DNA of 64,000 nucleotides, from contig PBEC01000017.1 in NCBI GenBank assembly GCA_002717515.1, positions 9,159-73,158 of the forward strand, given 5' to 3'. The stretch comes from Flavobacteriales bacterium. GTDB taxonomy: Bacteria; Bacteroidota; Bacteroidia; Flavobacteriales_C; GCA-002722245. The translations under genes were made by a program, and so were the position numbers. Below the pieces are notes generated by a model. It was not told the DNA's origin. It did not search any database and saw nothing but the letters and a program-made list of their open reading frames with translations. This document shows positions 37,192-58,959 of this stretch, one piece after another. Every line of letters starts with the position of its first letter. The first letter of the stretch is position 1.

Positions 37192-38255
37192 TATTGAAAC
37201 AATTGAATAAAATTATTTTTGTTTGAAACAACAGAATAGTTGTCGATTATTTTTTTTCGAGAATTTTTAGAAATCTCTTTTACTTTTTCCTTATCGGATA
37301 AAATCATTCGCAAAGTACTCTCCCACTCCTCTATGGAGTCGCATATGTATCCGTTCACTTTATCATCTACAATTTCCGTATTTACACCAACAGGAGAAAC
37401 CAAAGCGGGAACGCCAAGACTCATATACTGAAGAGCCTTAAAACCACATTTTCCATTTGCCCACTTATCCATCGTCAACGGCATCAACCCGACGTTAAAA
37501 CGCAACAAATCCTCAATTTCTGTTTCTTTATTCCACTTTATAAATTCAAACGAATTGAGGTTAAATTCCGGATTTTTGTCGCTTATAATCAACAATGTGT
37601 ATTCGTATTCTTTTTCTAACTTTTGAAACAATGGAACCATTTCCTTTAAATATCTCAAAGTGGAGTGTGTTCCCGTCCAACCAATTACAAAATCTTTAGA
37701 ATCTTGATTTTTTACTCGGTTGTGATGATTTTCTGTATCAATTGTCGTGGGATTTATCCAAACATTAGAGTTGTACTTCTTTCCATAGTCGGCCAGAAAC
37801 TTATTCCCTACACTCAATTTATAAGCATATTTACAAAGTTTATTCACGTGCCCATAACTCTTAATAAATGCAAATCTCGCATTGTTTGCGGCATAATTTG
37901 GCAACCATATAGCATCGTCAAAATCATAAATTATTTTTTTCTTGTAAACTCGAGCAAGGATAAACTCAACGACTTGAGGGCCCAAAGGATAAACCTCTCT
38001 ATGAATGAAGATTCTATCGTATTTAAAGGCTGTTAAAAGAACAGCATACCTTCTTAACAATCCCCTTAACGTTCCAAGTGCCTTAGCCAAAACCGCTCCT
38101 TTCTTGTACAAAACCGACCAAGCTTTTTTATCCCAAAAAGAGGAAACTCTATAATGAATGTTTTCTTCATCTAAATAATGCATATATTGCTCAAAACGAA
38201 AACGCTGACTTGCAGCTGTTCCAAGTGGATATGGTATTAAAAAAAGGACTTTCAA
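37191..38255 (-). CDS. Glycosyltransferase (GT-B fold, GT4/GT1-like)
   Basis: MKVLFLIPYPLGTAASQRFRFEQY N-terminal GT-B start. C-terminal E..G.P....VG motif. The stop overlaps the gcvT start by 1 nt (TAATG). Confidence 0.55.
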   Translation of the reverse strand: MKVLFLIPYPLGTAASQRFRFEQYMHYLDEENIHYRVSSFWDKKAWSVLYKKGAVLAKALGTLRGLLRRYAVLLTAFKYDRIFIHREVYPLGPQVVEFILARVYKKKIIYDFDDAIWLPNYAANNARFAFIKSYGHVNKLCKYAYKLSVGNKFLADYGKKYNSNVWINPTTIDTENHHNRVKNQDSKDFVIGWTGTHSTLRYLKEMVPLFQKLEKEYEYTLLIISDKNPEFNLNSFEFIKWNKETEIEDLLRFNVGLMPLTMDKWANGKCGFKALQYMSLGVPALVSPVGVNTEIVDDKVNGYICDSIEEWESTLRMILSDKEKVKEISKNSRKKIIDNYSVVSNKNNFIQLFQ

Positions 38256-40517: not shown

Positions 40518-41063
40518 TTAATCCTCTTGTATAAATTTCTCAATTTTTTTAACAGCATGGTGATATTGTGCCTTTAAACTTCCAACAGAAACATCCATAA
40601 CTTCCGCAATATCTTTAAATTTCATTTCTTCAAAATACTTCATATTAAATACCATTCTTTGTTTTTCCGGTAATTTTAATAAAGATTTTTGAAGTTTCAT
40701 TTGAATTTCATCTCCGCTGTAAAAGTTATCTGCATCCAATGTAGAACTCAACTCATGTTCAACGTCTCCAATCGGTAAAAAAAACCGTCTCTTCTTTTTG
40801 CGCAAGTAATTAAGTGCTTCATTCGTTGCAATTCTGTATATCCATGTATATAATTTAGAATTCCCTTTAAAAGACCCAATGTTTTTCCACACCTTCACAA
40901 AAACCTCTTGAGCAATATCATCTGCCGCATCATGGGCAATTACCATTCTTCGAATTACCCAGTAAACTTTTTCTTGATATTTATCCATTAACAAATTGAA
41001 ACCATAATTAATGGTTTCTTTATCTTGGATTTTTTCAATTATTTCCTCGTCAGTCCAGCTCAA
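40518..41063 (-). CDS. RNA polymerase ECF (sigma-24-like) sigma factor
   Basis: Region 2 (DDIAQEVFVKVWKNIGSF...YTWIYRIATNEALNYLRKK) and a region-4 HTH. Confidence 0.8.
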   Translation of the reverse strand: MSWTDEEIIEKIQDKETINYGFNLLMDKYQEKVYWVIRRMVIAHDAADDIAQEVFVKVWKNIGSFKGNSKLYTWIYRIATNEALNYLRKKKRRFFLPIGDVEHELSSTLDADNFYSGDEIQMKLQKSLLKLPEKQRMVFNMKYFEEMKFKDIAEVMDVSVGSLKAQYHHAVKKIEKFIQED

Positions 41064-41506: not shown

Positions 41507-42916
41507 ATGAGTCAGTCTATTATTCAAGACATTCAAAATAAACTAAACGAAAAGAAAATATCTTGCGTTCAGTTGGTTCGAGAGAAAATTGCAGCTCTAC
41601 AATCCTCAACTAAAAATGCAAATAATTTAATTCTGGATGAGCAAGCTCTGGAACAAGCAAAAATATGGGATGAAAAAATTGCTTCGGGACATATATTAAG
41701 TGGAATCGAAGGAATTCCATTTGGCGTTAAAGATGTTTATTTGTTGAAAGGAACGATTTCCACAGCGAGTTCAAATATTCTAAAAAACTACAAGTCTCCA
41801 TATACTGCTACAGCCATTCAAAAGTTAATTGACGCGGGAGCGATACCCATATGCAAAGAAAATTGCGATCAATTTGGACATGGTTCTACAAATGAAAATT
41901 CCGTTTTTGGTGTTGCAAAAAATGCACACAATGACGATAAAGTGGCAGGAGGATCATCAGGAGGCTCTGCAGTTAATGTTGCCGAAGGAAATACTGTTTT
42001 CTCAATTGGGGGAGACACAGGTGGTTCTATTCGTCAACCTGCAGGGTACAACAAAGTTTATGGACTAAAACCAACATACGGGCGAGTTTCTCGATATGGC
42101 TTGATGGCCTACACTTCATCTTCTGACTGTGTTGGACCTTTTGCTAATACCGTTAAGGATATCGCTACAACTCTCAATGTTATGAGTGGTAAAGATGGAA
42201 AAGATCAAACCACATTAACTTCTACCCCAATAGATGTTGAATCTTTTGATTCGAAAATAAAGGCTGGAACAAAGATTGGTGTCTATAAATCTTTTATCGA
42301 TCACCCGTCCTTAGAATCGAAAATCAAGACAGACTTTAACTCATTAATTGAAAAATTAAAAGAAAAAGGTGTTGAAATAAAAGAACTTGATTTTTTTGAT
42401 GGAGATACACTAACTGCCACCTATTACATCATTGCCCTTGCTGAAACCGCTAGTAATCTTTCTCGAATTGATGGAATCGCATTCGGAAATAGAGCTATGG
42501 ATAAAGAGAACCTTGCTTTAACTTACCTGGACACAAGAGGTGAAGGGTTCAGTCAAGAAACCAAAAGAAGAATTATCGCAGGAAATCAGGTTTTGTCGGT
42601 TGGTTATTCTGAGGAAATCTATAAAAAAGCCTTGGAGGTAAGAAAAGGAATTGAAGCGAAATTTGCTAAGGATTTTGAAGAAGTAGATTTTGTTTTATCC
42701 CCTACATCCCCACTTCTCCCTCCAACTATTGGAGAATCTTTGAAGGATCCTCTAACCATGTATTTAAGCGATATGTATACGGTAGGATTTAGCCTTGGTG
42801 GATTGCCCACATTGAGTGCTCCTTTTGTGGTTGAAAACAATGTGCAAATAACTGCTGCAAAAGAAAAAGACGAAGAAATATTAAGATTTGCATACGCAAT
42901 TGAGCAATCGTTATAA
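41507..42916 (+). CDS. gatA: Glutamyl/aspartyl-tRNA amidotransferase subunit A (amidase signature family)
   Basis: Amidase signature GGSSGGSAVNVAEG...GGDTGGSIRQPA, the Ser-cisSer-Lys triad context, and the size. Confidence 0.9.
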   Translation: MSQSIIQDIQNKLNEKKISCVQLVREKIAALQSSTKNANNLILDEQALEQAKIWDEKIASGHILSGIEGIPFGVKDVYLLKGTISTASSNILKNYKSPYTATAIQKLIDAGAIPICKENCDQFGHGSTNENSVFGVAKNAHNDDKVAGGSSGGSAVNVAEGNTVFSIGGDTGGSIRQPAGYNKVYGLKPTYGRVSRYGLMAYTSSSDCVGPFANTVKDIATTLNVMSGKDGKDQTTLTSTPIDVESFDSKIKAGTKIGVYKSFIDHPSLESKIKTDFNSLIEKLKEKGVEIKELDFFDGDTLTATYYIIALAETASNLSRIDGIAFGNRAMDKENLALTYLDTRGEGFSQETKRRIIAGNQVLSVGYSEEIYKKALEVRKGIEAKFAKDFEEVDFVLSPTSPLLPPTIGESLKDPLTMYLSDMYTVGFSLGGLPTLSAPFVVENNVQITAAKEKDEEILRFAYAIEQSL

Positions 42917-42958: not shown

Positions 42959-45900
42959 ATGAGTTTAGATAAGAAAATTGAAGAATTAGGATATGAAATT
43001 GTAATGGGTGTTGAAACCCACGTACAACTAAACACTAAAACCAAGTTGTTTTGTTCATGCGATAATGAGGAATCAACAACACCCAATGAAAATATTTGTC
43101 CAGTTTGTACAGGTCAAATGGGTACCCTTCCGGAATTAAATAAAGCCGCGGTAGAAAAATCAATTATTCTAGGTGCTGGTTTAAATGCCAAAATACCTGA
43201 TTTAGTAAGATGGGATAGAAAACACTACCAATACCCTGATTTACCCAAAAACTTTCAATTGACGCAACTCGATCACCCCATCATTGAAGGTGGAAGTGTT
43301 AAATGTTTTCGAGACGACGGAAGTTCTTTTACTGTTGATTTACATCATGCACATTTAGAGGAAGATGCTGGTAAGTTAGTTCACACGGATAAATACTCCT
43401 TAGTTGATTACAACAGATGCGGTACTCCACTGGTTGAGATTGTTACCGAGCCATGTTTACACAAAGTGGAGGATGCAGAGATTTATGCTAAATACATTCA
43501 AAAAATAGCAAGGCATTTAGGTGTTTCGGACGCTGACATGGAAAAAGGCCAAATGCGTTCAGATGTTTCGATTTCATTAAGAAAGATAGGGACTAAAGAT
43601 TTAAACCCGCGTACAGAGATAAAAAACTTAAATTCCTTTGCTTTTATGTCTAAAGCGGTTGCAGAGGCTGTAAGCAAGCAACTTAATTATTACGAAGAGC
43701 ATGGAGTTCCTTCTCCCGACCAGGTAACTGCTCAGTGGGATGCGGAAGCTCAAGTAACTCGTGTGATGCGTTCTAAGGAAGATGCTGCAGATTACCGCTT
43801 CTCGCAAGAACCAGATATTCCATGGTTAGATGTTTCTGATTTAAAAGCGAGAACATCTGTTGATGTTTCATTGCTACCAACTGTTGTTGAAGAGGAATTA
43901 ATTACTGGTGGTGTCAGGCCTCAAGATGCCAAATTCTTCTCTGGTGATAAAGAAAGATCAAGAGTTGTAATTGGACTAAACGAGGGTGTTAATGACATTA
44001 AAGCAGTAGCAACTGTTTTAATGAACAATGTAAAACCAGAAGAATATTCAAACTTCTCAGAATTAAAACCTTACAACTCCTTACTTAAAAAATTCATTAA
44101 TAATGTTATCCCTGTAAATATTGTTAAGGAAGGTTTCCAGAATCTATACACCAACGCTGATTTTGATTACGAAGGATTTATCAAAGCGAACACTGTTTCG
44201 GAAGACCAGATTGATGCTGCAGTTGCTGAAATTGTTGCGGCAAATACAGAGATTGTTACCGCTATTACTAGAGGAAATCAAGGTCAAGCTGGTCGTTTAG
44301 TTCCTCAGGTAATGGCTAAGACTGGAAAAGGAGTTTCTGGTAAGATTATTCGTGAGAAAATTTTAGCAGCTTGTTCTGGCAAAGGAGCACAAACCGAAAA
44401 TGAGGGCGAGAATACTCAAAAAGGAGTAACAAAAGAAGCCAAGAAAAGAGATCTTAACGACGATACGCCGTCTAAATACCAGGATGTAAGAATTGTTAAG
44501 GATACTTACAGAACACATAGAATTCCTGATGTTTCCAAAGAAAACCTAAACCAGGAGTTAACACTTGGTGGATGGATTGCTTCTATTCGTGACCACGGGG
44601 AGCTGGTTTTTATTGACCTTAGAGACGCTTCTAATGAGGTTTTTCAAGTAAGAGTAACGCGTGATCAGGTGAAAGACATCGATGATATCGCTAGACTGAA
44701 AGACGAGTCTGTGATCGCAGTTAAAGGTCAGGTTATCGAAAGAGCTGCTGACGACATTAACCCTAATACAAGAACAGGTAATATCGAGCTGGTTGCAAGT
44801 CACATCGACGTATTAAACGTTTCGAAGAACTTACCTTTCGAGATTAAGAAAGCAGACAAAACGAATGAATCTGTTCGGATGGAGTATAAATTCTTAGACC
44901 ATAGAAATCAGTCGTCAAAGAAGGCTATTATCAACCGTCACAAAGTGATCAAGTTAATCCGTGACATGTTAGATGATCAAAATTTTATTGAAGTAGAAAC
45001 TCCTATACTATCTGGTGGTACAGACGAAGGAGCTCGTGAGTTCATCGTTCCATCAAGGGTTCACAAAGGGAAATTCTACACACTACCTCAAGCACCTCAG
45101 CAATACAAACAAATGCTAATGGTTGGAAGTTTTGAAAGATACTTCCAGATTGCTCGTTGTTTCCGTGATGAGGACTCAAGAGGTGACCGTCAGCCAGAAT
45201 TCACACAAATGGATTTGGAAATGTCCTTTGCGTCAATGGATGAAATTATCCAGCTCAACAGCGACCTATTGGTAAATGTTGTTAAAACGGTTTATGCCAA
45301 ATCCAAATGGCAATTAAAAGATTTTATTACCATTACCTATGCTGAAGCGATGGAAAAGTATGGTTGTGATCGCCCTGATTTGCGTTTTGGTTTACCTATG
45401 AAAACCATTACGGAAGTAGTTGCCAACACTCCTTTTCAGGTATTTAGAAATCCAATTGAAAATGGTGGTATTGTTAAAGCTATCAAAGTCTCCAAAGAGG
45501 AAATGGGTGACAAAAGAATGTCCAAAGGCGCTATTGAAAAGCTCACGACTTTAGCTCAAAGTAATGGTTTAGGTGGACTAGCCTATATTATTGTAAATGA
45601 GAATGATTTACAATCCCCAATAATCAAATTCATAGGGGAGGATATTGCAGCTAACATCATTAAAATAATGGATGCAAATGTAGGAGACATCGTCTTTTTC
45701 TCCGCTGCTGATTTTGGGACAGCAAACAAAGCTTTAGATGCGGTTAGACAAGAATTAGGGGCAATGCTCAACCTTATTCCTAAAAACGTATTGCAACCAG
45801 CTTGGGTCATTGACTTCCCTCAGTTTGAAGAAAAAGAAGACGGTGGATGGACGTTCTCACATAACCCATTCTCCATGCCTAAGCCAGAATTTGTTGAACA

Positions 45901-46291
45901 ACATATGAATGCTGAAAACCCAGGAAAAATCCTGGCACAACAGTACGACTTGATTCTCAATGGTTACGAAATCGGCGGAGGCTCTGTACGTGCCCACAGG
46001 GGCGACATACTTGAAGCTACATTTAAAATTATGGGATACAACCACGAAGAAATGCTGGCTTCAGTCGGAAATGTATACAACGCTTTCCAATACGGAGCTC
46101 CACCACACGGAGGAATTGCTTGGGGATTAGATAGACTCTTGATGATTCTTGAGAAGAAAGATTCGATTAGAGATGTTATGGCCTACCCGAAAACCGGTTC
46201 TGGTGAGGACTATTTATTCAACGCACCAAATGTACTTTCTGCAAAAAAGGTATCTGAAGCGAATGTTCAGTTGATTGAAAAGACCAAATAG
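42959..46291 (+). CDS. gatB-aspS: In-frame fusion of GatB (amidotransferase subunit B, aa 1 to about 475) with aspartate--tRNA ligase (bacterial type, aa about 520-1110)
   Basis: N-terminal GatB blocks: GYEIVMGVETHVQL, CPVCTGQMGTLPELN, YPDLPKNFQLTQ, and a GatB/YqeY tail VMAKTGKGVSGKIIREKIL. A Lys/Glu-rich linker follows. Then comes the AspRS OB-fold LTLGGWIASIRDHGELVFIDLRD, class II motifs FQIARCFRDED (motif 2) and GGGSVRAHRGD...GAPPHGGIAWGLDRL (motif 3), with the bacterial GAD insertion. One continuous 1110-codon ORF. Confidence 0.85.
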   Translation: MSLDKKIEELGYEIVMGVETHVQLNTKTKLFCSCDNEESTTPNENICPVCTGQMGTLPELNKAAVEKSIILGAGLNAKIPDLVRWDRKHYQYPDLPKNFQLTQLDHPIIEGGSVKCFRDDGSSFTVDLHHAHLEEDAGKLVHTDKYSLVDYNRCGTPLVEIVTEPCLHKVEDAEIYAKYIQKIARHLGVSDADMEKGQMRSDVSISLRKIGTKDLNPRTEIKNLNSFAFMSKAVAEAVSKQLNYYEEHGVPSPDQVTAQWDAEAQVTRVMRSKEDAADYRFSQEPDIPWLDVSDLKARTSVDVSLLPTVVEEELITGGVRPQDAKFFSGDKERSRVVIGLNEGVNDIKAVATVLMNNVKPEEYSNFSELKPYNSLLKKFINNVIPVNIVKEGFQNLYTNADFDYEGFIKANTVSEDQIDAAVAEIVAANTEIVTAITRGNQGQAGRLVPQVMAKTGKGVSGKIIREKILAACSGKGAQTENEGENTQKGVTKEAKKRDLNDDTPSKYQDVRIVKDTYRTHRIPDVSKENLNQELTLGGWIASIRDHGELVFIDLRDASNEVFQVRVTRDQVKDIDDIARLKDESVIAVKGQVIERAADDINPNTRTGNIELVASHIDVLNVSKNLPFEIKKADKTNESVRMEYKFLDHRNQSSKKAIINRHKVIKLIRDMLDDQNFIEVETPILSGGTDEGAREFIVPSRVHKGKFYTLPQAPQQYKQMLMVGSFERYFQIARCFRDEDSRGDRQPEFTQMDLEMSFASMDEIIQLNSDLLVNVVKTVYAKSKWQLKDFITITYAEAMEKYGCDRPDLRFGLPMKTITEVVANTPFQVFRNPIENGGIVKAIKVSKEEMGDKRMSKGAIEKLTTLAQSNGLGGLAYIIVNENDLQSPIIKFIGEDIAANIIKIMDANVGDIVFFSAADFGTANKALDAVRQELGAMLNLIPKNVLQPAWVIDFPQFEEKEDGGWTFSHNPFSMPKPEFVEQHMNAENPGKILAQQYDLILNGYEIGGGSVRAHRGDILEATFKIMGYNHEEMLASVGNVYNAFQYGAPPHGGIAWGLDRLLMILEKKDSIRDVMAYPKTGSGEDYLFNAPNVLSAKKVSEANVQLIEKTK

Positions 46292-48395: not shown

Positions 48396-50141
48396 ATGAT
48401 GAAAAAATTACTTTTAGTACTTATGGGGACAGCAGCACTGTCCCTCAGCGCACAAGATGACTGCGTATCCTCAACAGGATTTATTGACTCTTACGATGCT
48501 TCCGAAGCACCAAGTGACGGAAACAATCTTTCTCTCGGTTATTGGGGGTCAAGTGGTGGAGTCTATGACTTCACAAGAAATAATGGAGACTTAGAGATCA
48601 CTGTAGATCAAGCTCAAGGAGGATGGACCCCAATGGGATTTACATTTTCAGAATCAGTAGATTTAACTGGTAATACCCTCGATATATCTTTAACCAATGA
48701 TGGATCCGATGGAATTGAAGTTTATTTCTCACTAATTAGTAATAACACAACAGGTGTTGATGCTGAAAGAATTACCGCGACAAATACAGGATCACTTTTC
48801 GGAGGAGTTGTAAGTGGTGGAGCTACAGTAAATTATTCATTTGATATTTCCAATGGTAGGATTCATCAATGGGTTGCAAGTTCTGACGACTGTACAGACG
48901 GAACAATGGCCGGAAGCTACTGTATGAGAGATAAAGGTTTTGACATCACTAAAGTTACAGGGATTGAATGGACAATAAATGGAGCTGCATCTGCAGAAAC
49001 AGGATGGAGCAACCCTGAACTAATAGCTCACCCTGTTAAAATTCATTCAATTGGATCAGGAACATGTACAAATGGCGGTGGAGATAACAGTAACGACGGT
49101 GGAGATGACAGTAACGACGGTGGAGACGACAGTAACGACGGTGATGACAATAGCGACGGAGACACGAATGGTCAGGCCTGTAATGACTTAGACGACCATG
49201 GACACGGTACTTGGTACGATAATTTAGACGTTCAGCCAAATGGTGTTGTAAAGTGTACTTTTGAAAGAGATAGTATCCTAAACACCAAGTATGGAGCTTT
49301 AGACAAAGGTCTTTTACAGGAAAGTAATGATGCAAAATACTGTGGTATGTGTGTTGAAGCAATCGCTCCTGACCACAATAATGTTCCAGTAATTATTCAA
49401 ATTGTAGATGAATGCCCTGATTGTTACGACAGAAATTCTGACGGATCAATCAACACTGGTGTAAATACAAAATTTGGAGATATCGACTTAAGCATTACAG
49501 CTTTTAAAGCTCTGCTTCAAGAGGATCATGTTGCTTTAGGAATTGGTGATTTTGACTGGAAAGAGGTATCATGTCCTTGGCAGAAGCCTTTACACTTAAT
49601 TTTTCAAGGTTCACACGATTGGTACGCCAAGGTTATCGTTGCAAATCATGTAAACAGAATAGCTACTGTTGAAATCTCAAATGACGGTGGAAGTTCATGG
49701 GAACTAATGGAAAGAGGCGAAGACAACGGTTTTGTAAAAGGAAGTTATGGTGGAGAAACTAAGGCCTTTAAAATTACAGATATTTATGGAAGCGAAATCA
49801 TAATGAACAATATTGACATGGTTACAAACGGAAATAACATAGTTGATGGATCTGAAAACTTCCCAGCATGTGGACTTACTACATCAACTCAAGATTTGAA
49901 TACTCTTGATTATGTAACTGCTTTTCCTAACCCTGCAAATTCATCCATTACCTTTGTTGGTATTGAAGATGTTGAAAAAATGGAAATTGTGAGTGTAAAT
50001 GGTCAAGTTGTTGCAAGCAAAAACTTCCAAACAAGCACAGCTCAAATATCACTTGATATTTCACAATTAGCACCTGGCCTCTATGTTGCAAAAATGACAG
50101 GTGAAAACAATACAGGTGTTGTTACATTTGTAAAGAAATAA
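48396..50141 (+). CDS. Secreted bacterial expansin-like protein (EXLX: DPBB D1 plus CBM63-like D2) with an N-terminal unknown domain, an acidic Gly/Asp/Ser/Asn linker and a T9SS C-terminal sorting domain
   Basis: Signal peptide. The D1 region GHGTWYD...CGMCVEAI...VIIQIVDECPDCYDRNSDGSINTGVNTKFGDIDLSITAFKAL parallels EXLX1 T.Y....Y.E...G....VYVTD.CPEC..G.LDLS..AF. The D2 region WKEVSCPWQKPLHLIFQGSHDWYAKVIVANHVNRIATVEIS is like EXLX1 D2. The C-terminal TIGR04183-like CTD is FPNPANSSITFVG...YVAKMTGENNTGVVTFVKK. Confidence 0.7.
   Translation: MMKKLLLVLMGTAALSLSAQDDCVSSTGFIDSYDASEAPSDGNNLSLGYWGSSGGVYDFTRNNGDLEITVDQAQGGWTPMGFTFSESVDLTGNTLDISLTNDGSDGIEVYFSLISNNTTGVDAERITATNTGSLFGGVVSGGATVNYSFDISNGRIHQWVASSDDCTDGTMAGSYCMRDKGFDITKVTGIEWTINGAASAETGWSNPELIAHPVKIHSIGSGTCTNGGGDNSNDGGDDSNDGGDDSNDGDDNSDGDTNGQACNDLDDHGHGTWYDNLDVQPNGVVKCTFERDSILNTKYGALDKGLLQESNDAKYCGMCVEAIAPDHNNVPVIIQIVDECPDCYDRNSDGSINTGVNTKFGDIDLSITAFKALLQEDHVALGIGDFDWKEVSCPWQKPLHLIFQGSHDWYAKVIVANHVNRIATVEISNDGGSSWELMERGEDNGFVKGSYGGETKAFKITDIYGSEIIMNNIDMVTNGNNIVDGSENFPACGLTTSTQDLNTLDYVTAFPNPANSSITFVGIEDVEKMEIVSVNGQVVASKNFQTSTAQISLDISQLAPGLYVAKMTGENNTGVVTFVKK
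49074..49165 (+). repeat. About 4.5 imperfect tandem copies of a 21-bp unit encoding the (G)GDDSND acidic linker of the expansin-like protein
   Basis: ggtggagataacagtaacgac / ggtggagatgacagtaacgac / ggtggagacgacagtaacgac / ggtgatgacaatagcgacgga. On the opposite strand it produces a spurious HRRYCH-repeat ORF (49036..49362). Confidence 0.8.
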
Positions 50142-50235: not shown

Positions 50236-52179
50236 TTGAAGTATCTTTTTTTTGTACTTATTCTTTTACTAGAGATATCGTCAAGCTCATGCAGTCAAAC
50301 CCTGTTACCTGAGAAAAGGCTCGAGGAGCAAAACCATTGGTTTACGTCCTGTGAATCCACAAAATTGATTAATAAAGTTCGGTTTTTTTCAGACGGTAAA
50401 GGTTTAATTAAATCTCAAAACATAATTTGTGATTCCATTTCAAGATCTGGAAAATTTAGTTTGATTATGAAGCAAAACAAAAAATTTGCTTTTGAGACAT
50501 CAATAAAAAAAATAAAAAAAGGCGATTATTTTCTCGCATCCGTCTGGGTCAAGGGTTCAATAAGTTTACCTAAACTAACAGCTGTTTACAACAAAAGATT
50601 TAACACAAAAAACAAAGTTTTAAAAAAAGAGAACGGGTGGAGCTATCTTGAAATAAGAATACATATAAAGGAAGATGCACCAGAATTAAAATTTTATGTT
50701 TTTAAACCGGATAAAATACAGATGATTTTAGACGACTTTCACGTCTATAAGCTCCCCAATAAAATGAACTCAAAAACTAATCAGCTTGAGGGTATCGAAA
50801 AAGTTAACCTAAAAGTTCCTGAGGATAATTTAATTAAAGTTATTGAGCAAAGAAAACAAGCATTTAATGACAAAATGCTAAGTAAAAAAACAAAAAAATG
50901 GATTAAAGTAGAAGCAAACGGAAAAAAGGCAAAAATGAGATTAAAAGGAGATTGGCTGGACCATTTGTCGAACTACAAATGGAGCTACCGAATAAAAACA
51001 ACACAACCACCATTTGTAGAGTATTCGATAACAAATCCTATTTCAAGAAATTTTTTAATTGAATTTTCCGCTCAAAAAATAATGCGCTCAGAAGGAATTT
51101 TTACAACTAATTATTCTTTTTGCTATGTTTCTACGAACGACTCAATGAAGGGGATTTATGGATTGGAACAACACTTTAATAAAAAGTTAATTGAAACCTG
51201 GAAATTCGGAAGTGGAGACATCTTGAAATATGATGAAAATGATGTTTGGAAAATCAGAAAAAAAAATAATCTAAAAGATAGACAGGAGCTCAACTACCTG
51301 GATTGCTCTAATATTCTTTCGTACATAAATAAAGGCAATTCAGAACATATGAAAAACAACGGCAAAACATTGGACATATTAAAGAAAACTGACTTTCCTG
51401 TAGATTCAATATTTGATATTGATTATATGGCAAAATACTGCGCTTTGATTGATTTATTTAACGCACATCACGGTATATTTTGGCACAATATAAGACTCTT
51501 TAAAAGCGATTCAACTCATAAATACTACCCTATTGCCTTTGACTTGAGTACCGATAAAAATTCCAACAATGATGACTTGCTGTTTCAAAAAATAGATAAA
51601 GAGCCAATTTTTATTGGATTATTTCAAAATAAAAAATTTAAAAAGAAATATTTTAATCAACTTAAAATTTATTCATCAGATGATTTTCTGAATCGAATAA
51701 ATACATTTCTAGGTGAAGAGCACAAACTCTATTCGAAAGCCATTCTTCAGGAATACGACTCTGTATGGATTCAAAATGAATTATACCGAGAAAGGGCTCA
51801 GCAAATAAAATTATTAATTCAAAACGGGCTTAAAGACACATTGAACACACTTAAATTCGACACAAAAAACACGAATCTTTTAAACAACGAGTACGAGTTC
51901 GAGCCGGTCATTTCCGCGAAAGCTTACAATCAAGGAAACGGTAAAATACTAATCATGAACTTCTATAATAAACCCATTGAAATAATATCTTTTGAGGATG
52001 ATAAAGGACGACCGGTAAAAACCTCATCAAAACAAATACAAGCATACAAAAAGGCTTTCTCAAAAGCATCGTATTATATACACAGCACGAAAACTAAATT
52101 AAAATGGTGTGTTGTTAGCGTTAACAAAAAAAGATATCGAATAAAAATACGTAAAGGCGCATACCCTATAAGCTATTAA
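50236..52179 (+). CDS. CotH-family (atypical kinase-like) lipoprotein
   Basis: Signal/lipobox ..EISSSSC. The core block KMRLKGDWLDHLSNYKWSYRIK...ITNPISRNFLIEFSAQKIMRSEGIFTTNYSFCYVSTNDSMKGIYGLEQHFNKKLIE matches the CotH pattern. Confidence 0.55.
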   Translation: MKYLFFVLILLLEISSSSCSQTLLPEKRLEEQNHWFTSCESTKLINKVRFFSDGKGLIKSQNIICDSISRSGKFSLIMKQNKKFAFETSIKKIKKGDYFLASVWVKGSISLPKLTAVYNKRFNTKNKVLKKENGWSYLEIRIHIKEDAPELKFYVFKPDKIQMILDDFHVYKLPNKMNSKTNQLEGIEKVNLKVPEDNLIKVIEQRKQAFNDKMLSKKTKKWIKVEANGKKAKMRLKGDWLDHLSNYKWSYRIKTTQPPFVEYSITNPISRNFLIEFSAQKIMRSEGIFTTNYSFCYVSTNDSMKGIYGLEQHFNKKLIETWKFGSGDILKYDENDVWKIRKKNNLKDRQELNYLDCSNILSYINKGNSEHMKNNGKTLDILKKTDFPVDSIFDIDYMAKYCALIDLFNAHHGIFWHNIRLFKSDSTHKYYPIAFDLSTDKNSNNDDLLFQKIDKEPIFIGLFQNKKFKKKYFNQLKIYSSDDFLNRINTFLGEEHKLYSKAILQEYDSVWIQNELYRERAQQIKLLIQNGLKDTLNTLKFDTKNTNLLNNEYEFEPVISAKAYNQGNGKILIMNFYNKPIEIISFEDDKGRPVKTSSKQIQAYKKAFSKASYYIHSTKTKLKWCVVSVNKKRYRIKIRKGAYPISY

Positions 52180-53740
52180 AAAAAACTATTTTCTTCTCCA
52201 GTACATTAGGAGATGTTTCAATTTGATGCTTAAATCGATTTAAATCTTTTGCTAAAAAAGGTATAAAAGACACAACTCTTTCCATGGGTTTTGAACCTGG
52301 AAAAAGTTTATTGATAATATTTACTAATTTCAAAATATCTTCCTGATGCTTTTTCTTTTCTGCCTTTAAGAATCTTTTTTCAACATTTTTGAGAGCTGAA
52401 TTAGCCCTCTTTTCCTCACCTTCAATTACCTTCTTCAATTGCACATCAATCTCATCTCCTTTTATCTTTAAATTATGAAAAAACTTTTTTAAGAATTCAA
52501 AATCCTGATCAAGTGAAATAGGATTGGACGACAAAAACTTGGTTAGTGCATTAATTTGAACATTAACGTCATCAAACAAGGCTTCCGAAAATAAATTTCT
52601 TGAACTGAGCCAATCGAAATTTTTTTCAGTCAATACAAAATAAGAATTTCTCAAAATTGGTATTGGAAAACCAATCTTTAGAGCATTAAAAACAGGTTTA
52701 AGTTCTAACCAATAGGAAACCTCCCCCGCGCCACCAACATAAGCCAGGTTAGGAAACAAGATTTCTTGATAAACAGGGCGAAGCAAAACATTTGGACTAA
52801 TTTTCTCAGGTGTTTTATCAATTAGCTCTTCTATTTCATCAGGGGTCCAAAACATGGATTGATCTGAAGTCGAAAACCCTTCTTTCGTTCTCACAAATCT
52901 CTTTCGAATTCCATTCTCGATGTAAAACAAATTTATCTCCCTAGGTTTAACTTGAAGTTTGTAATCCTGTTTTATTTTGTTGAGATGATCTTTACTTGAA
53001 TTGGTTACAATCTGTTCAAAAAATTCTTTTCGAGCAACGTCTTTAAACAGTGTTTTTAATTCTCTTGAATCCGCATCAAAAATAAGCAAACCCTCTTCTT
53101 TAAAAAGTTCTCTAATAAAAACCCTTGTTATGTGACTTAAGTTCTTTCCTGAATCAAAAGCCTGATTAATAAGCTCTTTAACATGGCTAAATTCTTTATC
53201 ATCTCCTAAAACCTGATTTACCTCTTTTATAAAACTCTTAAAATGTTTACTCTGAATCCTCCCCACAGGTCCAGCGTTGTTTCCGGGACAACTTATGGTT
53301 TTTCCAAACAGGTTCACTTTTGAAATCTCTTGATAATCGTGATCCTCTGATGCCATCCAAAAAATAGGTAAAACTGCATTCTGTGATGTTGAAATTTGTT
53401 TAGAGAGTTTTATTACATCCATAATTTTTGTGTAAAAAAACAACGGCCCTCCTAAAAGCATCAACTGATGTCCTGTGGTTATCGTAAAAGTAGTTTCTTT
53501 CGAAAAAAGAGCTAAGTTAAACTTCTCTTTTTCAGTAAGTTCAAATGGTGAATACTGATTTTTCAGAGCTTTATAAACTATTGCTCTATTACTGGAGCTG
53601 TAACTTCTACCTTTGTTATCCAACAACTGCTTCTCAGAGTAATCCCAGTTAACAATTTTTTTAGCTTTTAACTCTCCCGATAAATAATCTGAAATAATTC
53701 TTGGGTAAAAATCAACTTTATTGGATTTTATTAAATTCAT
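52166..53740 (-). CDS. bshC: Bacillithiol biosynthesis cysteine-adding enzyme BshC
   Basis: TGHQLMLLGGPLFFYTKIMDVIKL and PIFWMASEDHDYQEI align to B. subtilis BshC (..GGQQAGLLTGPLYTIHKI.. and ..PIFWVAGEDHDLDEI..). About 524 aa, as expected. The start overlaps the upstream gene stop (ATGA). Confidence 0.8.
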   Translation of the reverse strand: MNLIKSNKVDFYPRIISDYLSGELKAKKIVNWDYSEKQLLDNKGRSYSSSNRAIVYKALKNQYSPFELTEKEKFNLALFSKETTFTITTGHQLMLLGGPLFFYTKIMDVIKLSKQISTSQNAVLPIFWMASEDHDYQEISKVNLFGKTISCPGNNAGPVGRIQSKHFKSFIKEVNQVLGDDKEFSHVKELINQAFDSGKNLSHITRVFIRELFKEEGLLIFDADSRELKTLFKDVARKEFFEQIVTNSSKDHLNKIKQDYKLQVKPREINLFYIENGIRKRFVRTKEGFSTSDQSMFWTPDEIEELIDKTPEKISPNVLLRPVYQEILFPNLAYVGGAGEVSYWLELKPVFNALKIGFPIPILRNSYFVLTEKNFDWLSSRNLFSEALFDDVNVQINALTKFLSSNPISLDQDFEFLKKFFHNLKIKGDEIDVQLKKVIEGEEKRANSALKNVEKRFLKAEKKKHQEDILKLVNIINKLFPGSKPMERVVSFIPFLAKDLNRFKHQIETSPNVLEKKIVFFNSL

Positions 53741-55200
53741 TTGTTTTGTGTTCCATATTCCTCAATCGGATTCTCCAATACGCTATACCTAGAATTACTC
53801 AACGTAATTATGGAAGAGGCTGTGTAAAACCCAATTCTTGTTTCAGAATATTTGTAATCAATCAACGTTAGTTTTACAATCTTATTTATTGAAAGTTCTA
53901 TGTAATGGCCGTATCTTATAAGCTTGAAGTCTACAGAATAATCGTTACCAACAACAAATTGATTGGTTTGTAAATTTTTGAAAACAAAATTATTTTGAGT
54001 GTCATCAGGGTTGAAACCCCACGCTCTTATTTGAACATAACCACTTTTAAAATCAAGCGATATATAGTAGCCACTTCCATCATCTCCTTCAGCCAACAGC
54101 AATCCACACTTTCCTATGCCTTCCATAGCAATTGTCCCCTCCCATATGTATGCTGCAGAAATTCGCTCGAAAGTAAACAATTCATATCCTGACCTTGATG
54201 TCATCCACCATTTACCCTGTACATTCTCAAACTTGGCAGTAGGATTATTATACATAGGCTTGACTTCTGGAAAGGCTTTTTGAGTATGAATTTCAGTAAC
54301 TTTTTCTGTCCATTTATAAAATGACTTAAGATATAACTTCCCTTCCGAATTGACCGCCAGCTCTTTTGGTGGAGGCAACACTCGTTTAGAATTTACTTTA
54401 CGATCAAGAAAATAAAAACCGTAAACAAGATTATGATCTCCGTCTTTTACAATTCTTGCGGCATAATTTCCTTGAGGCATCAAAACATCATGATGAAAAG
54501 ACTGATACTCTCCATCAAAAGAATCCGAGTGCCAATAACGAACTTTTATATCTTCTCGAATTGATCCAATGAGAAAAAACCGACCTTCCATCTCTATTAA
54601 ACACGGACATTCAATATCATCATAAGCCAAAGGGAATAATATCGGCTTTTCAGGCTCAAATCCATTTTCGGTTCTTTTATAAGCCGCCACACAACCTCTT
54701 CTGTAAACAGGACCCGTGCTTGCTCTGGCACATATTAACAGATACTCCAAGCCTTTATTCTTAAATAAAAAAGGATCTCGAAAACTTAGCCATGTCCTCG
54801 GATTATTCTTAACATCTTCATAGTAAGGAGCCTGAGATTCTATAGGCAAGTCCTCAGGAAAAGTTTTATCCCAACTAATTAAATCTTTAGAAATCGCTCT
54901 TCCAACTCTTTGATTAATCCCTCGCTCCTCCAGCTGCAACCCCGTATAAAACATCTCAAAACTACCGTCTTCACAATCCGAAACGTCCATTGTCCACAAC
55001 ATATCATCATCCCACTCGCCTGGATCTCCAACGAAAATAGCGTTCTTTACCCTACTCCATGAAATTCCGTCCTTAGAAACTGCATGCGCAATGTAATCGT
55101 GATTAGGTATTATTAAATGAAATAAATGATAAACTCCATTATGGACATGAACTTCCACATCCCCAATTTCCCAATCTGTAAACCCACTTCCTGTATACAT
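53737..55200 (-). CDS. GH32-family-like (beta-fructofuranosidase/invertase-like 5-bladed propeller) glycoside hydrolase with a degenerate N-terminal nucleophile motif
   Basis: FRDPFLF matches the RDP motif and DIECPCLIEMEG matches the EC(P) acid/base motif at the expected spacing. GVYHLFHL resembles GEYHLFYQ. The canonical WMNDPNG is replaced by FTDWEIGD right at the N-terminus. A C-terminal beta-sandwich-like domain is present. Confidence 0.5.
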   Translation of the reverse strand: MYTGSGFTDWEIGDVEVHVHNGVYHLFHLIIPNHDYIAHAVSKDGISWSRVKNAIFVGDPGEWDDDMLWTMDVSDCEDGSFEMFYTGLQLEERGINQRVGRAISKDLISWDKTFPEDLPIESQAPYYEDVKNNPRTWLSFRDPFLFKNKGLEYLLICARASTGPVYRRGCVAAYKRTENGFEPEKPILFPLAYDDIECPCLIEMEGRFFLIGSIREDIKVRYWHSDSFDGEYQSFHHDVLMPQGNYAARIVKDGDHNLVYGFYFLDRKVNSKRVLPPPKELAVNSEGKLYLKSFYKWTEKVTEIHTQKAFPEVKPMYNNPTAKFENVQGKWWMTSRSGYELFTFERISAAYIWEGTIAMEGIGKCGLLLAEGDDGSGYYISLDFKSGYVQIRAWGFNPDDTQNNFVFKNLQTNQFVVGNDYSVDFKLIRYGHYIELSINKIVKLTLIDYKYSETRIGFYTASSIITLSNSRYSVLENPIEEYGTQNK

Positions 55201-55205
55201 ATGAA

Positions 55206-57362
55206 CTATTTCAATTTAAAATGCTCAAGTCCTTCCAGAATACCCGCTGCAGCATACTTTTTTGCTACGTATAATTTTTTTCTGGTCCTTAAGTGACTTA
55301 ATTCTTCTGATGCATTACCAACAACAATTCCATTTATGGGTTCCCGGAACATGTCCATATCATTTCCTGAGTCTCCACATGCGTAAACCTTATTCAACTG
55401 TAGGCCCCATTTATGACAAAGATAAAGGATTGCATTTCCCTTTGAGGCTCTTTTCGGAAGGATATCAACAAATTTATTGTGTGACGCTATTACATTTATA
55501 TGATACCAGTCGTTGCCTAATCGTGACTTTATTTTTTCTTCATTATACTTTTGTGAGTCACAGTAATAAGAAATCTTATGTGGGTTTTGAGCATTTTCCT
55601 CCTGTAAAACCAACCAATCTAAAGATTTAAGAGCGTCAACAATTTTAGATCGGTCCCATTTGAAGTCGAGGTATGCACTCCAATCCTCATCTTTACTATT
55701 TAGGTCTGTATCGTAATATATTTGTGTACCAACTGAACACACGATAAAATCAACATCTAATTTATATTCATCAACAACTTCTTTTACCAAATCAAAATTT
55801 CGTCCCGAAGACAAAGCAAAACTAATTCCAGTCTCTCTATTTTGAAGGAATTTTTTTAAATCCTCTATTCCTGGATCGCCATGCTCAGGAGCAATCAAAG
55901 TACCATCAATATCAGAAATAATCAAACTTTTACTCTCTTTTAAATGCTTTATATGTTCTTTTGGAGCGTTAAGTTCCTTGGCTGTTTTTGGCTCAGAACG
56001 ACTGATACTTTCCTGGACCCAGCTAACATACACTTCTATGTGAGCATCCCAACTGTAATGCTTTTTGGTGTTTAATATCCCATTATCACTAAAATGACGC
56101 CATTTTTGCTCATTCGTAAGTATTTTTTTTATACTTCTTGTTATGTCAGCCTTATCCATTGGATCAACCAACAAACCATTTTTCATCCTTGGCACAATTT
56201 CAGATGGACCACCATTCTTTGTAATTACAACAGGTAATCCTGTTCCTCCTGCCTCAATTGTAGTTAAACCGAAATTTTCATGCAAACAGATATTTGCAAA
56301 AACTCCACGCTTATTGGCGCAATATTGATAAATCAGAGCTACTTCATTTTCAATATCGTGTCTTTTAGGTATCGCCATTTTCCCGTATAAATCATACTTG
56401 TCCATAAGGAGCAAAAGTTCTGTAAGAACCTCTTTTTCTTGCTCAGGCATAGTATTTATATCCTTTCTAATACCGGCAAAAATTGCCAGATTAGCTAAAG
56501 CTTGTAACTCCTTATCTTCTCCATACGCCTCAATTAAAAAATGTAAATTTTTTCTTCTATCTGGACGGCTAAGAGCCATAATTACGGGTTTATTCGGGTT
56601 CGTCAAGAACTTTTCGATATTTTGACCAACCCAATACCTACGTTGAAGTTGAATTAAGTCCTCTTCCTCCTGAAATCGTTTAATGTAATAAGGTGTAAAC
56701 TTTTGTATATCTATTCCAGGAGGCTGAACGTGAAATTGAGCCTTATCATAATTATCGTATTCCTCCCAGTCTGCTATTTCTAAATAAGTTGATGTAACTA
56801 TAAACTCACTCAAAGCCAGCGCATTCTCCTCTGCACTGATTCTTTGTTTAAATTTAAACCTTTCCTCAGCCTCCTTTTCTGTCATTCCAGATGCAAGCAT
56901 TTTTTGCTTTTTAGCCAATCCAAGAGAGTGCCCTGTATGAGCGAAAGGAACATTCAAGCGTACAGACAGTCGAGAAGCTGCATAACCAGCGTCTCCATAA
57001 TGAGAATGTATCCAATCCGGCTGAATATCATATTCTTTTATATGTTTCAAAGCATTTTCTACAAATTCATCAAGATGAGCCCAAAGCTCTTCTTTCATTT
57101 TATACTTTAATCCACCAAATTCAATTCGACGAATATCAAACTTAGGATTAATCTCTTCAATGGTCGCACCATACTCCGACGAAACTTCATCATCTTTAAT
57201 TTTTCTTGTGAACAAATGCACATGTTCAACCTCTTCATGATTGGAAAGGTATTCTGAGAGTTCAAGGACATATTTTGTTTGTCCTCCATTATCGGCGTCT
57301 CTTCCAATTTCAAGACCACTTCCCTTTACCAGGCCATGGAGATTAATGATGAATATTCTCAT
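55206..57362 (-). CDS. sps: Bifunctional-architecture sucrose-phosphate synthase (GT4 glucosyltransferase domain plus C-terminal sucrose-phosphatase-like HAD domain)
   Basis: N-terminal HGLVKGSGLEIGRDADNGGQTKYVLEL, the GT-B core, and a C-terminal HAD motif LIISDIDGTLI...GDSGNDMDMF. 718 aa, like the cyanobacterial SPS. Confidence 0.85.
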   Translation of the reverse strand: MRIFIINLHGLVKGSGLEIGRDADNGGQTKYVLELSEYLSNHEEVEHVHLFTRKIKDDEVSSEYGATIEEINPKFDIRRIEFGGLKYKMKEELWAHLDEFVENALKHIKEYDIQPDWIHSHYGDAGYAASRLSVRLNVPFAHTGHSLGLAKKQKMLASGMTEKEAEERFKFKQRISAEENALALSEFIVTSTYLEIADWEEYDNYDKAQFHVQPPGIDIQKFTPYYIKRFQEEEDLIQLQRRYWVGQNIEKFLTNPNKPVIMALSRPDRRKNLHFLIEAYGEDKELQALANLAIFAGIRKDINTMPEQEKEVLTELLLLMDKYDLYGKMAIPKRHDIENEVALIYQYCANKRGVFANICLHENFGLTTIEAGGTGLPVVITKNGGPSEIVPRMKNGLLVDPMDKADITRSIKKILTNEQKWRHFSDNGILNTKKHYSWDAHIEVYVSWVQESISRSEPKTAKELNAPKEHIKHLKESKSLIISDIDGTLIAPEHGDPGIEDLKKFLQNRETGISFALSSGRNFDLVKEVVDEYKLDVDFIVCSVGTQIYYDTDLNSKDEDWSAYLDFKWDRSKIVDALKSLDWLVLQEENAQNPHKISYYCDSQKYNEEKIKSRLGNDWYHINVIASHNKFVDILPKRASKGNAILYLCHKWGLQLNKVYACGDSGNDMDMFREPINGIVVGNASEELSHLRTRKKLYVAKKYAAAGILEGLEHFKLK

Positions 57363-57384
57363 AATATTTTTGTTTCAAACGGAT

Positions 57385-57415
57385 ACAAAAAATCCGAATT
57401 ATTTACAATTCGGAA
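57385..57415 (-). terminator. Rho-independent terminator of the CHI-like gene (minus-strand sense), in the SPS upstream region
   Basis: On the minus strand it reads TTCCGAATTgtaaatAATTCGGA followed by TTTTTTG. It is a perfect 8-bp stem. Confidence 0.6.
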
Positions 57416-57451
57416 ATTTATAAAATTGTTGTTCAAAAATCTCACTCAATA

Positions 57452-58012
57452 TTAATCAGTTCCTAACAATTCATCCTTTAAATCGTCTAAAACAGGATAT
57501 TCTCCTATCCACATTCCAAGCAATGCCTTTTGAAAATCTTTGTTTGCAGGCACCTTAACGGTTTCTTTTCCTGATTTGTAAATTTTTGTTTCTCCAGATT
57601 GATCAAAATACACAATAAACTCATCGTCTGCGGCAAAATCTGAACCAAAACCATTTCGAACTAATGCAATTTCCTTTTTTATAGAATCAGTTTTGCCTTG
57701 GGTTGACTTTTCAAAACCATCGTTCAGGCCCTTGTGAAACTTTTCAGCAGTAATTAAACTGCTTACAATTACTATTCTGACAAATTTGTTAGCATCCGAA
57801 TCTAAAATCACAGAACCGTCTGAGCTCTTTTCTTTAACATAAAGACCTATTGCATAGAGGTCAATAAACCATTTCTCTCTTACCCCGGCACCATTTAAAA
57901 CGTATTCTCCACCCAAGAATTTCTCATTGGATTTATATTTAATATCCGACACCTCTACGTCAGCAGAAACAAATAAAACTGTTGCGAATAATAATGCTAC
58001 AATCTTTTTCAT
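57452..58012 (-). CDS. Chalcone isomerase-like (CHI-fold, Chalcone_3 family) secreted protein
   Basis: Signal peptide. LNGAGVRE...LYAIGLYV blocks typical of CHI-like fatty-acid-binding family proteins. Confidence 0.6.
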   Translation of the reverse strand: MKKIVALLFATVLFVSADVEVSDIKYKSNEKFLGGEYVLNGAGVREKWFIDLYAIGLYVKEKSSDGSVILDSDANKFVRIVIVSSLITAEKFHKGLNDGFEKSTQGKTDSIKKEIALVRNGFGSDFAADDEFIVYFDQSGETKIYKSGKETVKVPANKDFQKALLGMWIGEYPVLDDLKDELLGTD

Positions 58013-58051
58013 AATTTAATTTATAAGGTGAAATCCGAATTTTAATAAAAG

Positions 58052-58708
58052 TCAAATCTCGATCAAATTATTTACTATTGCGTATTTAACCAATTCAGCA
58101 ACATTTTTCACCTTCACTTTTTGCATAATATTTGTCCGATGCGTATCAACGGTTCTGTGAGAAATACCCAATTTATTGGCTATTTTTTGATTACTCAAAC
58201 CATCTGAAAGGAGCTTGATTATTTGAACTTCTCGATCAGTTAAACCGGACAACTTTCTTTTTTTACCATTGAAATCCCCAGCTTTATCCACATAGCTACT
58301 CACCATCAACTGACTAACCTCTGAAGCAAAATACCTTTCCCCTTTGGCAACCTGTTTTATAGCCTTAATTAATTCCTCTTTTGGGGAGTCTTTTAAAATA
58401 TAACCCGATGCACCCGCTTTTATACTCCTTTGAATAAAATCTTCTTTAACATGCATGGATAACATAATAACTTTAACATCTTTATTCTTTTTGATTACCT
58501 CATCGGTAAGAAAAATGCCGTCTCCATCGTCAAGTGAAATATCCATCAATACAACATCAGGCTTTTTTTTATTTATGTATTGTAAAGCATTCGTGGCTGT
58601 ATTGATTTCACCTGTGACATCAATAGCACTCTCCGTTTTAAGCAATGCTTTTATTCCCATTCGTATCAGCTGATGATCATCAACTAAAACAACTTTAATA
58701 GTCTTCAT
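58052..58708 (-). CDS. NarL/LuxR-family response regulator (REC plus HTH_LuxR)
   Basis: Receiver block KVVLVDDHQLIRMGIKALL...VVLMDISLDDGDG. The C-terminal LuxR HTH is LTDREVQIIKLLSDGLSNQKIANKLGISHRTVDTHRTNIMQKV. The start is taken at MKTIK. The ORF track begins 3 codons earlier, at 58717. Confidence 0.8.
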   Translation of the reverse strand: MKTIKVVLVDDHQLIRMGIKALLKTESAIDVTGEINTATNALQYINKKKPDVVLMDISLDDGDGIFLTDEVIKKNKDVKVIMLSMHVKEDFIQRSIKAGASGYILKDSPKEELIKAIKQVAKGERYFASEVSQLMVSSYVDKAGDFNGKKRKLSGLTDREVQIIKLLSDGLSNQKIANKLGISHRTVDTHRTNIMQKVKVKNVAELVKYAIVNNLIEI

Positions 58709-58959
58709 TCCATGCATTTAATTAATTAAATATAACAAAACAATACGGGTTTTTACTTAATTAGAGAATATTAAATAAAACCAAATATTTATGGATAAAA
58801 AATCTTTTGTCATATAAAAAACATTACGAGTAAATTCGTACTTAAGTAATTTCTTTTAATTTTCTAATTGCATTCATTAGGCTCAGAATTGAACAACTTT
58901 TAAAATTCAAATCAATTATTTTTTTTAGAGAATCAAAATGAAGCATGATAAAGATGAAG

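Follow-up and report, generated by a model that had tools for sequence, protein, structure and literature searches.

Among described systems, the closest to the locus considered here is the co-directional sucrose operon spsA-sppA-frkA-amsA of Synechococcus sp. PCC 7002, which includes a sucrose-consuming enzyme and a fructokinase (PMC11046441), and the same four enzymes are present in the methanotroph Methylotuvimicrobium alcaliphilum 20Z (PMC8062543). A recent review limits sucrose synthesis to plants and some phototrophs. We analyzed a 64,000-nucleotide stretch of DNA from a Flavobacteriales bacterium (the window; contig PBEC01000017.1 of assembly GCA_002717515.1, positions 9,159 to 73,158), low in G+C at about 33%, in which a minus-strand operon encodes a predicted bifunctional sucrose-phosphate synthase/sucrose-phosphate phosphatase (SPS/SPP; gene sps), a divergent enzyme of glycoside hydrolase family 32 (the GH32-like protein), and the bacillithiol cysteine-adding enzyme BshC. 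In M. alcaliphilum 20Z the sucrose genes are presumably also arranged as an operon. The operon of the window is a variant of a known operon kind, and its genes are individually already annotated in public records. It comprises the following features, in the direction of transcription:

57393 to 57414, minus strand: terminator-like hairpin with a 9-bp stem and a T-run, between a chalcone-isomerase-like gene and sps; 5' boundary of the unit
55206 to 57362, minus strand: predicted bifunctional SPS/SPP, 718 amino acids, assigned from profile matches and HAD motifs
53737 to 55200, minus strand: divergent GH32-family enzyme, probably cytoplasmic, 487 amino acids, assigned from Pfam, invariant motifs, predicted fold, and pairing with sps
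52166 to 53740, minus strand: bshC, bacillithiol cysteine-adding enzyme, 524 amino acids, assigned from TIGR03998, PF10079 and PF24850; ATGA overlap with the stop of the GH32-like gene

The three open reading frames (ORFs) stand in the ORF table exactly where the initial annotation had placed them, and they are as tightly packed as it had stated, with 5 nt (55201-55205) between sps and the GH32-like gene, and a 4-nt ATGA overlap (53737-53740) between the GH32-like gene and bshC. Downstream, a convergent plus-strand ORF (50236-52179) overlaps the bshC stop by 14 nt. Because of this convergent gene and the hairpin upstream, the trio is an isolated, self-contained unit, and the three genes are very probably co-transcribed. 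The explanation of the whole locus that we favor, with moderate confidence, is that of one transcription unit, in which the first two genes provide a sucrose cycle and bshC has been captured once and is co-expressed with them. Gene 1 would convert nucleoside diphosphate-glucose and fructose-6-phosphate to sucrose-6-phosphate and then to sucrose, a compatible solute, gene 2 would hydrolyze that sucrose to glucose and fructose, and together they would adjust or recycle the sucrose pool. Many relatives have an adjacent PfkB kinase, which would phosphorylate the fructose back to fructose-6-phosphate. As for bshC, a single event in the ancestor of a clade labeled mostly marine Flavobacteriales would have attached it to the 3' end of this operon; its translational overlap with gene 2 would have persisted since then, and the gene would be carried on the same message as sps and the GH32-like gene and so be co-expressed with the sucrose genes.

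The conserved core of this operon is the sps and GH32-like gene pair, in that order, and it is found throughout the Bacteroidota. A scan of one genome per GTDB species for the GH32-like protein gave 355 positive stretches (at least 355 species). Of these, we retrieved 80 loci, all but one labeled Bacteroidota. The gene sps lies directly upstream of the GH32-like gene on the same strand in 76 of them; in three further loci sps is adjacent in another arrangement (79 of 80 adjacent in total), and a single locus is without sps. The carriers include the Flavobacterium johnsoniae group, Saprospiraceae, Cyclobacteriaceae, Chitinophagaceae, and Lewinellaceae. Sucrose synthesis had initially been described as uncommon outside a few groups, yet within the Bacteroidota the predicted capacity is not rare, given the breadth of the GH32-like partner and the near-constant adjacency of sps. 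Clustering of the flanking ORFs revealed a 281-amino acid PfkB sugar kinase in 25 of the 80 loci and, in the loci that were inspected, it adjoins the pair, either immediately before sps or immediately after the GH32-like gene. The combination of sps, GH32-like gene, and PfkB kinase looks like a cycle of sucrose synthesis and turnover.

The product of gene 1 comprises a GT4-family GT-B glycosyltransferase (residues ~1-470) and an HAD-IIB S6PP phosphatase domain (residues ~478-717). Profile searches bear out both domain calls: TIGR02472 is the top match and covers the full length, the SPS half matches PF00862 (52 bits), PF13439 (42 bits), and PF00534 (70 bits), representing the sucrose-synthase-type N-domain and the Glycos_transf_1 C-domain, and the S6PP family PF05116 is matched with 228 bits over essentially its full length (profile positions 2-247 of 247). 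The initial annotation had called the C-terminal domain phosphatase-like; its identity as S6PP stands, but the label is too weak, since all of the HAD catalytic motifs I-IV (DxDxT, S/T, K, and GDxxxD) are retained. In an alignment of 78 SPS/SPP homologs, D484, D486, T488, K641, and D668 are present in all 78, position 519 is serine or threonine in all 78, and D664 is present in 75. This conservation predicts a bifunctional enzyme with an active phosphatase half, and because the C-terminal domain keeps the HAD motifs a separate SPP is not needed. The public names reflect one half or the other: the ORF is a "sucrose-phosphate phosphatase" at NCBI (MBI34999.1) and a "sucrose-phosphate synthase" at JGI. 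In one relative, F. johnsoniae strain CI04 (L068, 5825-7977), the SPS/SPP seems to be split, being represented by two overlapping tblastn segments and two called ORFs, which could be due to a frameshift, a pseudogene, or a sequencing error.

The second gene encodes a member of a tightly conserved family (1096 matches, 55-60% identity across the Bacteroidota) whose relationship to GH32 is distant. The GH32 domain calls proposed initially were upheld for the N-terminal domain, where Glyco_hydro_32N (PF00251) gives a weak match of 34 bits, above the gathering score of 22.1 bits, but not for the C-terminal GH32 domain, to which there is no Pfam match. The AlphaFold (AF2) model (predicted local distance difference test score 78, predicted template modeling score 0.84) displays a 5-bladed β-propeller followed by a C-terminal β-sandwich. 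This predicted fold clearly matches GH32: in a Foldseek search with the model, GH32 enzymes account for every one of the 17 best PDB matches, at template modeling (TM) scores of 0.63-0.76 over ~500 aligned columns. Among 19 diverse homologs, W10-E-I-G-D14, R141-D142-P143, and E197-C198-P199 are invariant, and the family profile finds the endo-levanase BT1760, with RDP and ECP aligned to its FRDPF and YECPD; in GH32, RDP is the transition-state motif and EC the acid/base motif. (A structure of the E221A mutant of BT1760 is available as PDB 6r3u.) Inspection of the sequence revealed no obvious N-terminal signal sequence, so that the protein is probably cytoplasmic. It is predicted to be a β-fructofuranosidase acting on the sucrose formed by the upstream enzyme, which it probably splits; the choice of sucrose as substrate, and of hydrolytic rather than transferase activity, is our inference. 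Public records name the ORF glycosyl hydrolase family 32 or beta-fructofuranosidase.

The third gene is a normal bacillithiol-pathway gene. Its identification as bshC holds up in profile searches, with a TIGR03998 match of 346.9 bits that exceeds the equivalog cutoff of 265.8, and with both Pfam domains present (PF10079, 320 bits, and PF24850, 67 bits), corresponding to the Rossmann-like and coiled-coil domains. Against the Bacillus subtilis BshC structure 4wbd the E-value is 6.6e-30. In an alignment of 13 BshC proteins with 34-57% identity to that of the window, 83 columns are invariant and all are kept by the window protein, including TGHQL, WMAxEDHD, and GGxGExxYWLEL, and it is 100% identical to a protein named BshC in the NCBI metagenome-assembled genome (MAG) "Flavobacteriales bacterium." N-methyl-bacillithiol (N-Me-BSH) has been measured in the marine flavobacterium Polaribacter MED152 (PMC6282198), and since bacillithiol chemistry is thus established in marine flavobacteria, a BshC is ordinary in this organism.

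What sets the window operon apart from the phylum-wide core is the attachment of bshC. We sampled trio loci from the genome scan (L001-L006), through BshC homologs 40-57% identical to that of the window (L081-L085), and through GH32-like homologs 63-66% identical to the window protein (L090 and L091). Of these loci, L081 derives from a JGI marine metagenome. Where the GH32-like protein shares 62% or more identity with that of the window, in 13 loci representing ~11 lineages, bshC always lies directly downstream, whereas it does so in none of the 74 loci with a more distant GH32-like protein; within the 80-locus scan only L001-L006 have it. All of the BshC homologs tested at 40-57% identity occur in the sps-GH32-like-bshC order, as do those of L090 and L091, whereas BshC homologs just outside the clade (36-41% identity) are found in unrelated contexts, with ndk downstream within ~4.3 kb in three of four. 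Midpoint-rooted neighbor-joining trees were built for SPS and for the GH32-like protein, and each groups the trio loci in an exclusive clade. In every trio lineage bshC begins before the GH32-like gene has ended, with an ATGA overlap in four and one of 11-32 nt in the others. The genes upstream of the trio vary (a response regulator with a chalcone-isomerase-like gene, SelO, a 279-amino acid protein, a divergent aldehyde dehydrogenase, or a RimK-like gene with FGase), as do those downstream. The shared operon that had been proposed from the window alone is thus well supported, because the overlap is found in all trio loci examined and the trio persists while its flanks differ. One capture of bshC by a sucrose operon, followed by long retention, is the simplest reading of this distribution.

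The components of the trio differ in their degree of conservation. Between the window and L001-L004, L081, and L082, SPS is 87-92% and the GH32-like protein 82-87% identical, and BshC only 51-57%, a gap simply explained by stronger constraint on SPS and the GH32-like protein. In the same genome pairs the flanking genes are 50-81% identical; recent horizontal transfer of the trio was considered and rejected, because in near relatives these flanking genes are also syntenic. A single metagenome (3300053770) yielded the contigs of two trio loci, L005 (a MAG labeled Glaciecola sp.) and L006 (a MAG labeled Saprospiraceae). They have the trio and downstream genes in common and nest inside a clade otherwise labeled Flavobacteriales; one or both of the bin labels are probably incorrect.

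Several findings weigh against a captured bshC riding on a self-contained sucrose cycle, and each bears on a different part of it. In profile scans the window contains no PfkB match, that is, no fructokinase for the fructose that the cycle would release. Nor could a promoter be assigned in the window, since a scan for the sigma-70 consensus gave fewer sites than shuffled sequence (24 versus 29), and a scan for the Bacteroidetes-type TAnnTTTG was uninformative, the motif recurring within coding sequence. A TAnnTTTG does occur ~250 nt before bshC in five loci, where, in an alignment read by eye, it overlaps the codons of the invariant N404-F405; being within coding sequence, it is evidence neither for nor against an internal bshC promoter. 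Likewise, bshA and bshB were not found by profile searches of the window, which gave no PIG-L/BshB match, and therefore at most the last step of the bacillithiol pathway is coupled to the sucrose genes. The only other GT4 gene in the window (37191-38255) was considered as bshA and rejected, as it scores 34.8 bits against TIGR03999, with a cutoff of 273.7. The persistence of the trio while its flanks were scrambled could itself mean selection for a real functional link. On that premise the operon would be an integrated stress module, combining osmotic protection by sucrose and redox protection by bacillithiol, co-regulated since both stresses coincide, for example in sunlit surface seawater, and it was as a combined osmotic and oxidative stress module that the locus was first presented. 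The trio has been retained across a deep clade, in which BshC identity falls to 39-40%, despite replacement of the neighboring genes on either side, and the bshC overlap is conserved in every lineage; both are consistent with such a module, as is L077, a Flavobacterium locus outside the clade in which bshC lies 1.8 kb upstream of sps on the opposite strand. However, the link arose once, 74 of the 80 genome loci are without it, only the last pathway step would be co-regulated, and overlapping reading frames are hard to separate, so that retention could be neutral; the trio may have been kept by selection for co-expression or, equally, by the difficulty of separating overlapping genes. The genetic link between sucrose and bacillithiol genes is restricted to a single clade, which both trees recover as monophyletic. 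The katG (3583-5874) and extracytoplasmic function sigma factor (40518-41063) genes that had been cited as signs of a stress-adapted lifestyle are indeed in the window, but they lie ~46 kb and ~11 kb away, and we judge them to be ordinary genes of an aerobe that contribute nothing specific. A dedicated stress module, proposed from adjacency, is possible but unlikely.

The second area of doubt is the product of gene 1. Both of its halves fall just under the NCBIfam equivalog cutoffs that are specific for sucrose enzymes (531.5 bits versus 576 for TIGR02472, and 192.7 versus 209.75 for TIGR02471), and because of this the sugar donor, and hence the product, is not certain. The Agrobacterium mannosylfructose enzymes MFPS and MFPP are homologs of SPS and SPP, and gene 1 could make mannosylfructose or another β-fructofuranoside for gene 2 to hydrolyze, a GH32 partner needing merely a β-fructofuranosyl bond. 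The best characterized matches are nevertheless true sucrose enzymes: the closest SPS is that of Halothermothrix orenii (2r60, E-value 6.5e-68, 233 bits, residues 23-467), the closest SPP is that of Synechocystis (1s2o, E-value 6.5e-30, 107 bits), and sucrose synthases are also among the solved relatives. In addition, the SPP subfamily model TIGR01482 is matched above its cutoff (127.1 bits versus 107.15). A product other than sucrose has, in our estimation, a slim chance of being correct.

The specificity of gene 2 is open to a similar objection. Its best structural match is not an invertase but the endo-levanase BT1760 (6r3r, TM 0.76), compared with 0.66 for the Thermotoga invertase and 0.63-0.68 for invertases, at 14-19% identity, and levan fructotransferase and a plant 6-SST/6-SFT are matched as well. 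In the nucleophile region the protein has WEIGD where GH32 enzymes have WMNDPNG, and the two could not be aligned residue by residue; the profile alignments start after the WEIGD segment, and model confidence is low for residues 1-10. Gene 2 might then be a fructosyltransferase or fructan-acting enzyme, forming kestose-type oligosaccharides or a cytoplasmic fructan, or degrading such a product, and a protein so far removed from characterized GH32 enzymes is too divergent for its specificity to be read from sequence. On the other side, its N-terminus shows no obvious signal sequence, no fructan-related genes were seen nearby, and the PfkB kinase in 25 of 80 loci implies release of free fructose. 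A fructosyltransferase or fructan-acting enzyme is unlikely, and the sucrose cycle is retained as the preferred account of genes 1 and 2. A chemical rather than merely regulatory tie of bshC to that cycle, in which the BshC of this clade depends on the sucrose cycle or makes a cysteinyl-glycoside other than canonical bacillithiol, is very improbable, and we infer shared expression rather than shared chemistry. In vitro reconstitution of BshC activity is not known to have been achieved; should it indeed be lacking, an overlapped, conserved operon would point to a missing partner or substrate.

A few observations concern the edges of the unit. The gene upstream of the hairpin (57452-58012, minus strand) is chalcone-isomerase-like (PF16036), with an N-terminus resembling a signal peptide, and a hairpin and T-run of similar kind follow the same gene in L001-L003 (read by eye). 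Together with a LuxR-type response regulator, it occupies 57452-58717 (minus strand) just upstream of sps; both genes keep this position in L001-L003 and L081, the chalcone-isomerase-like gene alone does so in L004 and L082, and neither does in the deeper trio lineages. In the three deepest trio lineages, a conserved non-coding element, TTTG-N19-TAACTTTA, that matches the Bacteroidetes-type promoter pattern searched for, lies 117-130 nt upstream of sps (L005 ~5647-5677, L006 ~325-355, and L084 ~2198-2228). It was rejected as an operon-wide upstream element, being confined to those three loci and absent upstream of the window sps. An Rfam scan of 51500-58800 at E≤1 gave two sub-threshold, snoRNA-like chance matches and nothing else. 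On the downstream side, the convergent ORF (647 amino acids) has no Pfam or NCBIfam match but is 34% identical to the same-position gene of L082, which carries a CotH domain (PF08757), and may encode a divergent CotH-family protein. A further plus-strand ORF, of 581 amino acids (48396-50141), has a type IX secretion system C-terminal sorting domain and a sub-threshold match to an expansin EXLX1-like cellulose-binding domain (77.7 bits versus a cutoff of 100); a homolog is found near the trio in L003 and L081.

Elsewhere in the window, a single plus-strand ORF of 1110 amino acids (42959-46291) encodes a complete GatB (GatB_N and Yqey) fused to a complete bacterial-type aspartyl-tRNA synthetase (AspRS), scoring 413.7 bits against NF004012 (cutoff 338) and 710 bits against NF001750 (cutoff 443). 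A GatA-like amidase gene (41507-42916, plus strand; TIGR00132 456.9 bits, just under the cutoff of 481.1) directly precedes it, and the fusion could be a covalent Asn-transamidosome. It is found in independent assemblies, being 1111 amino acids long in L081 and represented by a 90% cluster of 20 members, mostly of 1110-1113 amino acids, and it is rare, with only three of 1.84 billion cluster representatives aligning over essentially the whole query: P0241 (80% identity), P0242 (40%), and P0243 (39%). NCBI names the ORF merely "GatCAB subunit B," and a literature search gave no obvious report of a GatB-AspRS fusion.

What might be the significance of a sucrose operon in these bacteria? In the literature we found no description of SPS in Flavobacteria or Bacteroidetes, of an SPS-GH32 pairing, or of a link between SPS and bacillithiol or bshC. 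The phylum-wide module of SPS/SPP and GH32-like protein is the more substantial point, more so than the attachment of bshC. The carriers of the GH32-like protein that were inspected are almost all heterotrophic Bacteroidota, including the culturable, genetically tractable F. johnsoniae group and MAGs of marine Flavobacteriales. Provided that the enzymes have their predicted activities, use of sucrose as a compatible solute or carbon buffer would be widespread in the Bacteroidota, seawater would have a possible non-phototrophic sucrose source in the marine Flavobacteriales, and the GH32-like proteins would constitute a new and deeply divergent cytoplasmic subfamily of β-fructofuranosidases. The attachment of bshC can be viewed as a clear example of an operon acquiring a housekeeping gene and retaining it for a long time.

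Like the Synechococcus PCC 7002 operon, the locus described here combines co-directional genes for the synthesis, dephosphorylation, and consumption of sucrose, and many relatives of the window also possess a fructokinase. Unlike in PCC 7002, a single polypeptide combines SPS and SPP, the predicted sucrose-consuming enzyme is a divergent GH32 protein rather than a GH13 amylosucrase, the host is a non-photosynthetic member of the Bacteroidota, bshC is appended in this clade, and the window is without a fructokinase. Bifunctional SPS-SPP fusions exist in cyanobacteria. Gene 1 resembles the H. orenii SPS and the Synechocystis SPP in possessing a GT4 GT-B domain and an HAD-IIB S6PP domain with all HAD catalytic motifs, and differs from characterized SPS/SPP enzymes in scoring just under the NCBIfam equivalog cutoffs. 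The GH32-like protein shares the two-domain fold of BT1760 and the Thermotoga maritima invertase (1uyp), with the RDP and EC(P) motifs aligned. In contrast to both, it is 14-19% identical to them, has WEIGD for WMNDPNG, lacks a Pfam match to the GH32 C-terminal domain, appears to be cytoplasmic, and belongs to a conserved family of its own. The window BshC has the same two-domain architecture and family-invariant residues as the B. subtilis enzyme and as the bshA-C systems of Bacteroidetes/Chlorobi (PMC6282198). Unlike other bshC genes, three of four of which in the other Bacteroidota loci examined have ndk downstream, that of the window is translationally overlapped with a sucrose-cycle gene.

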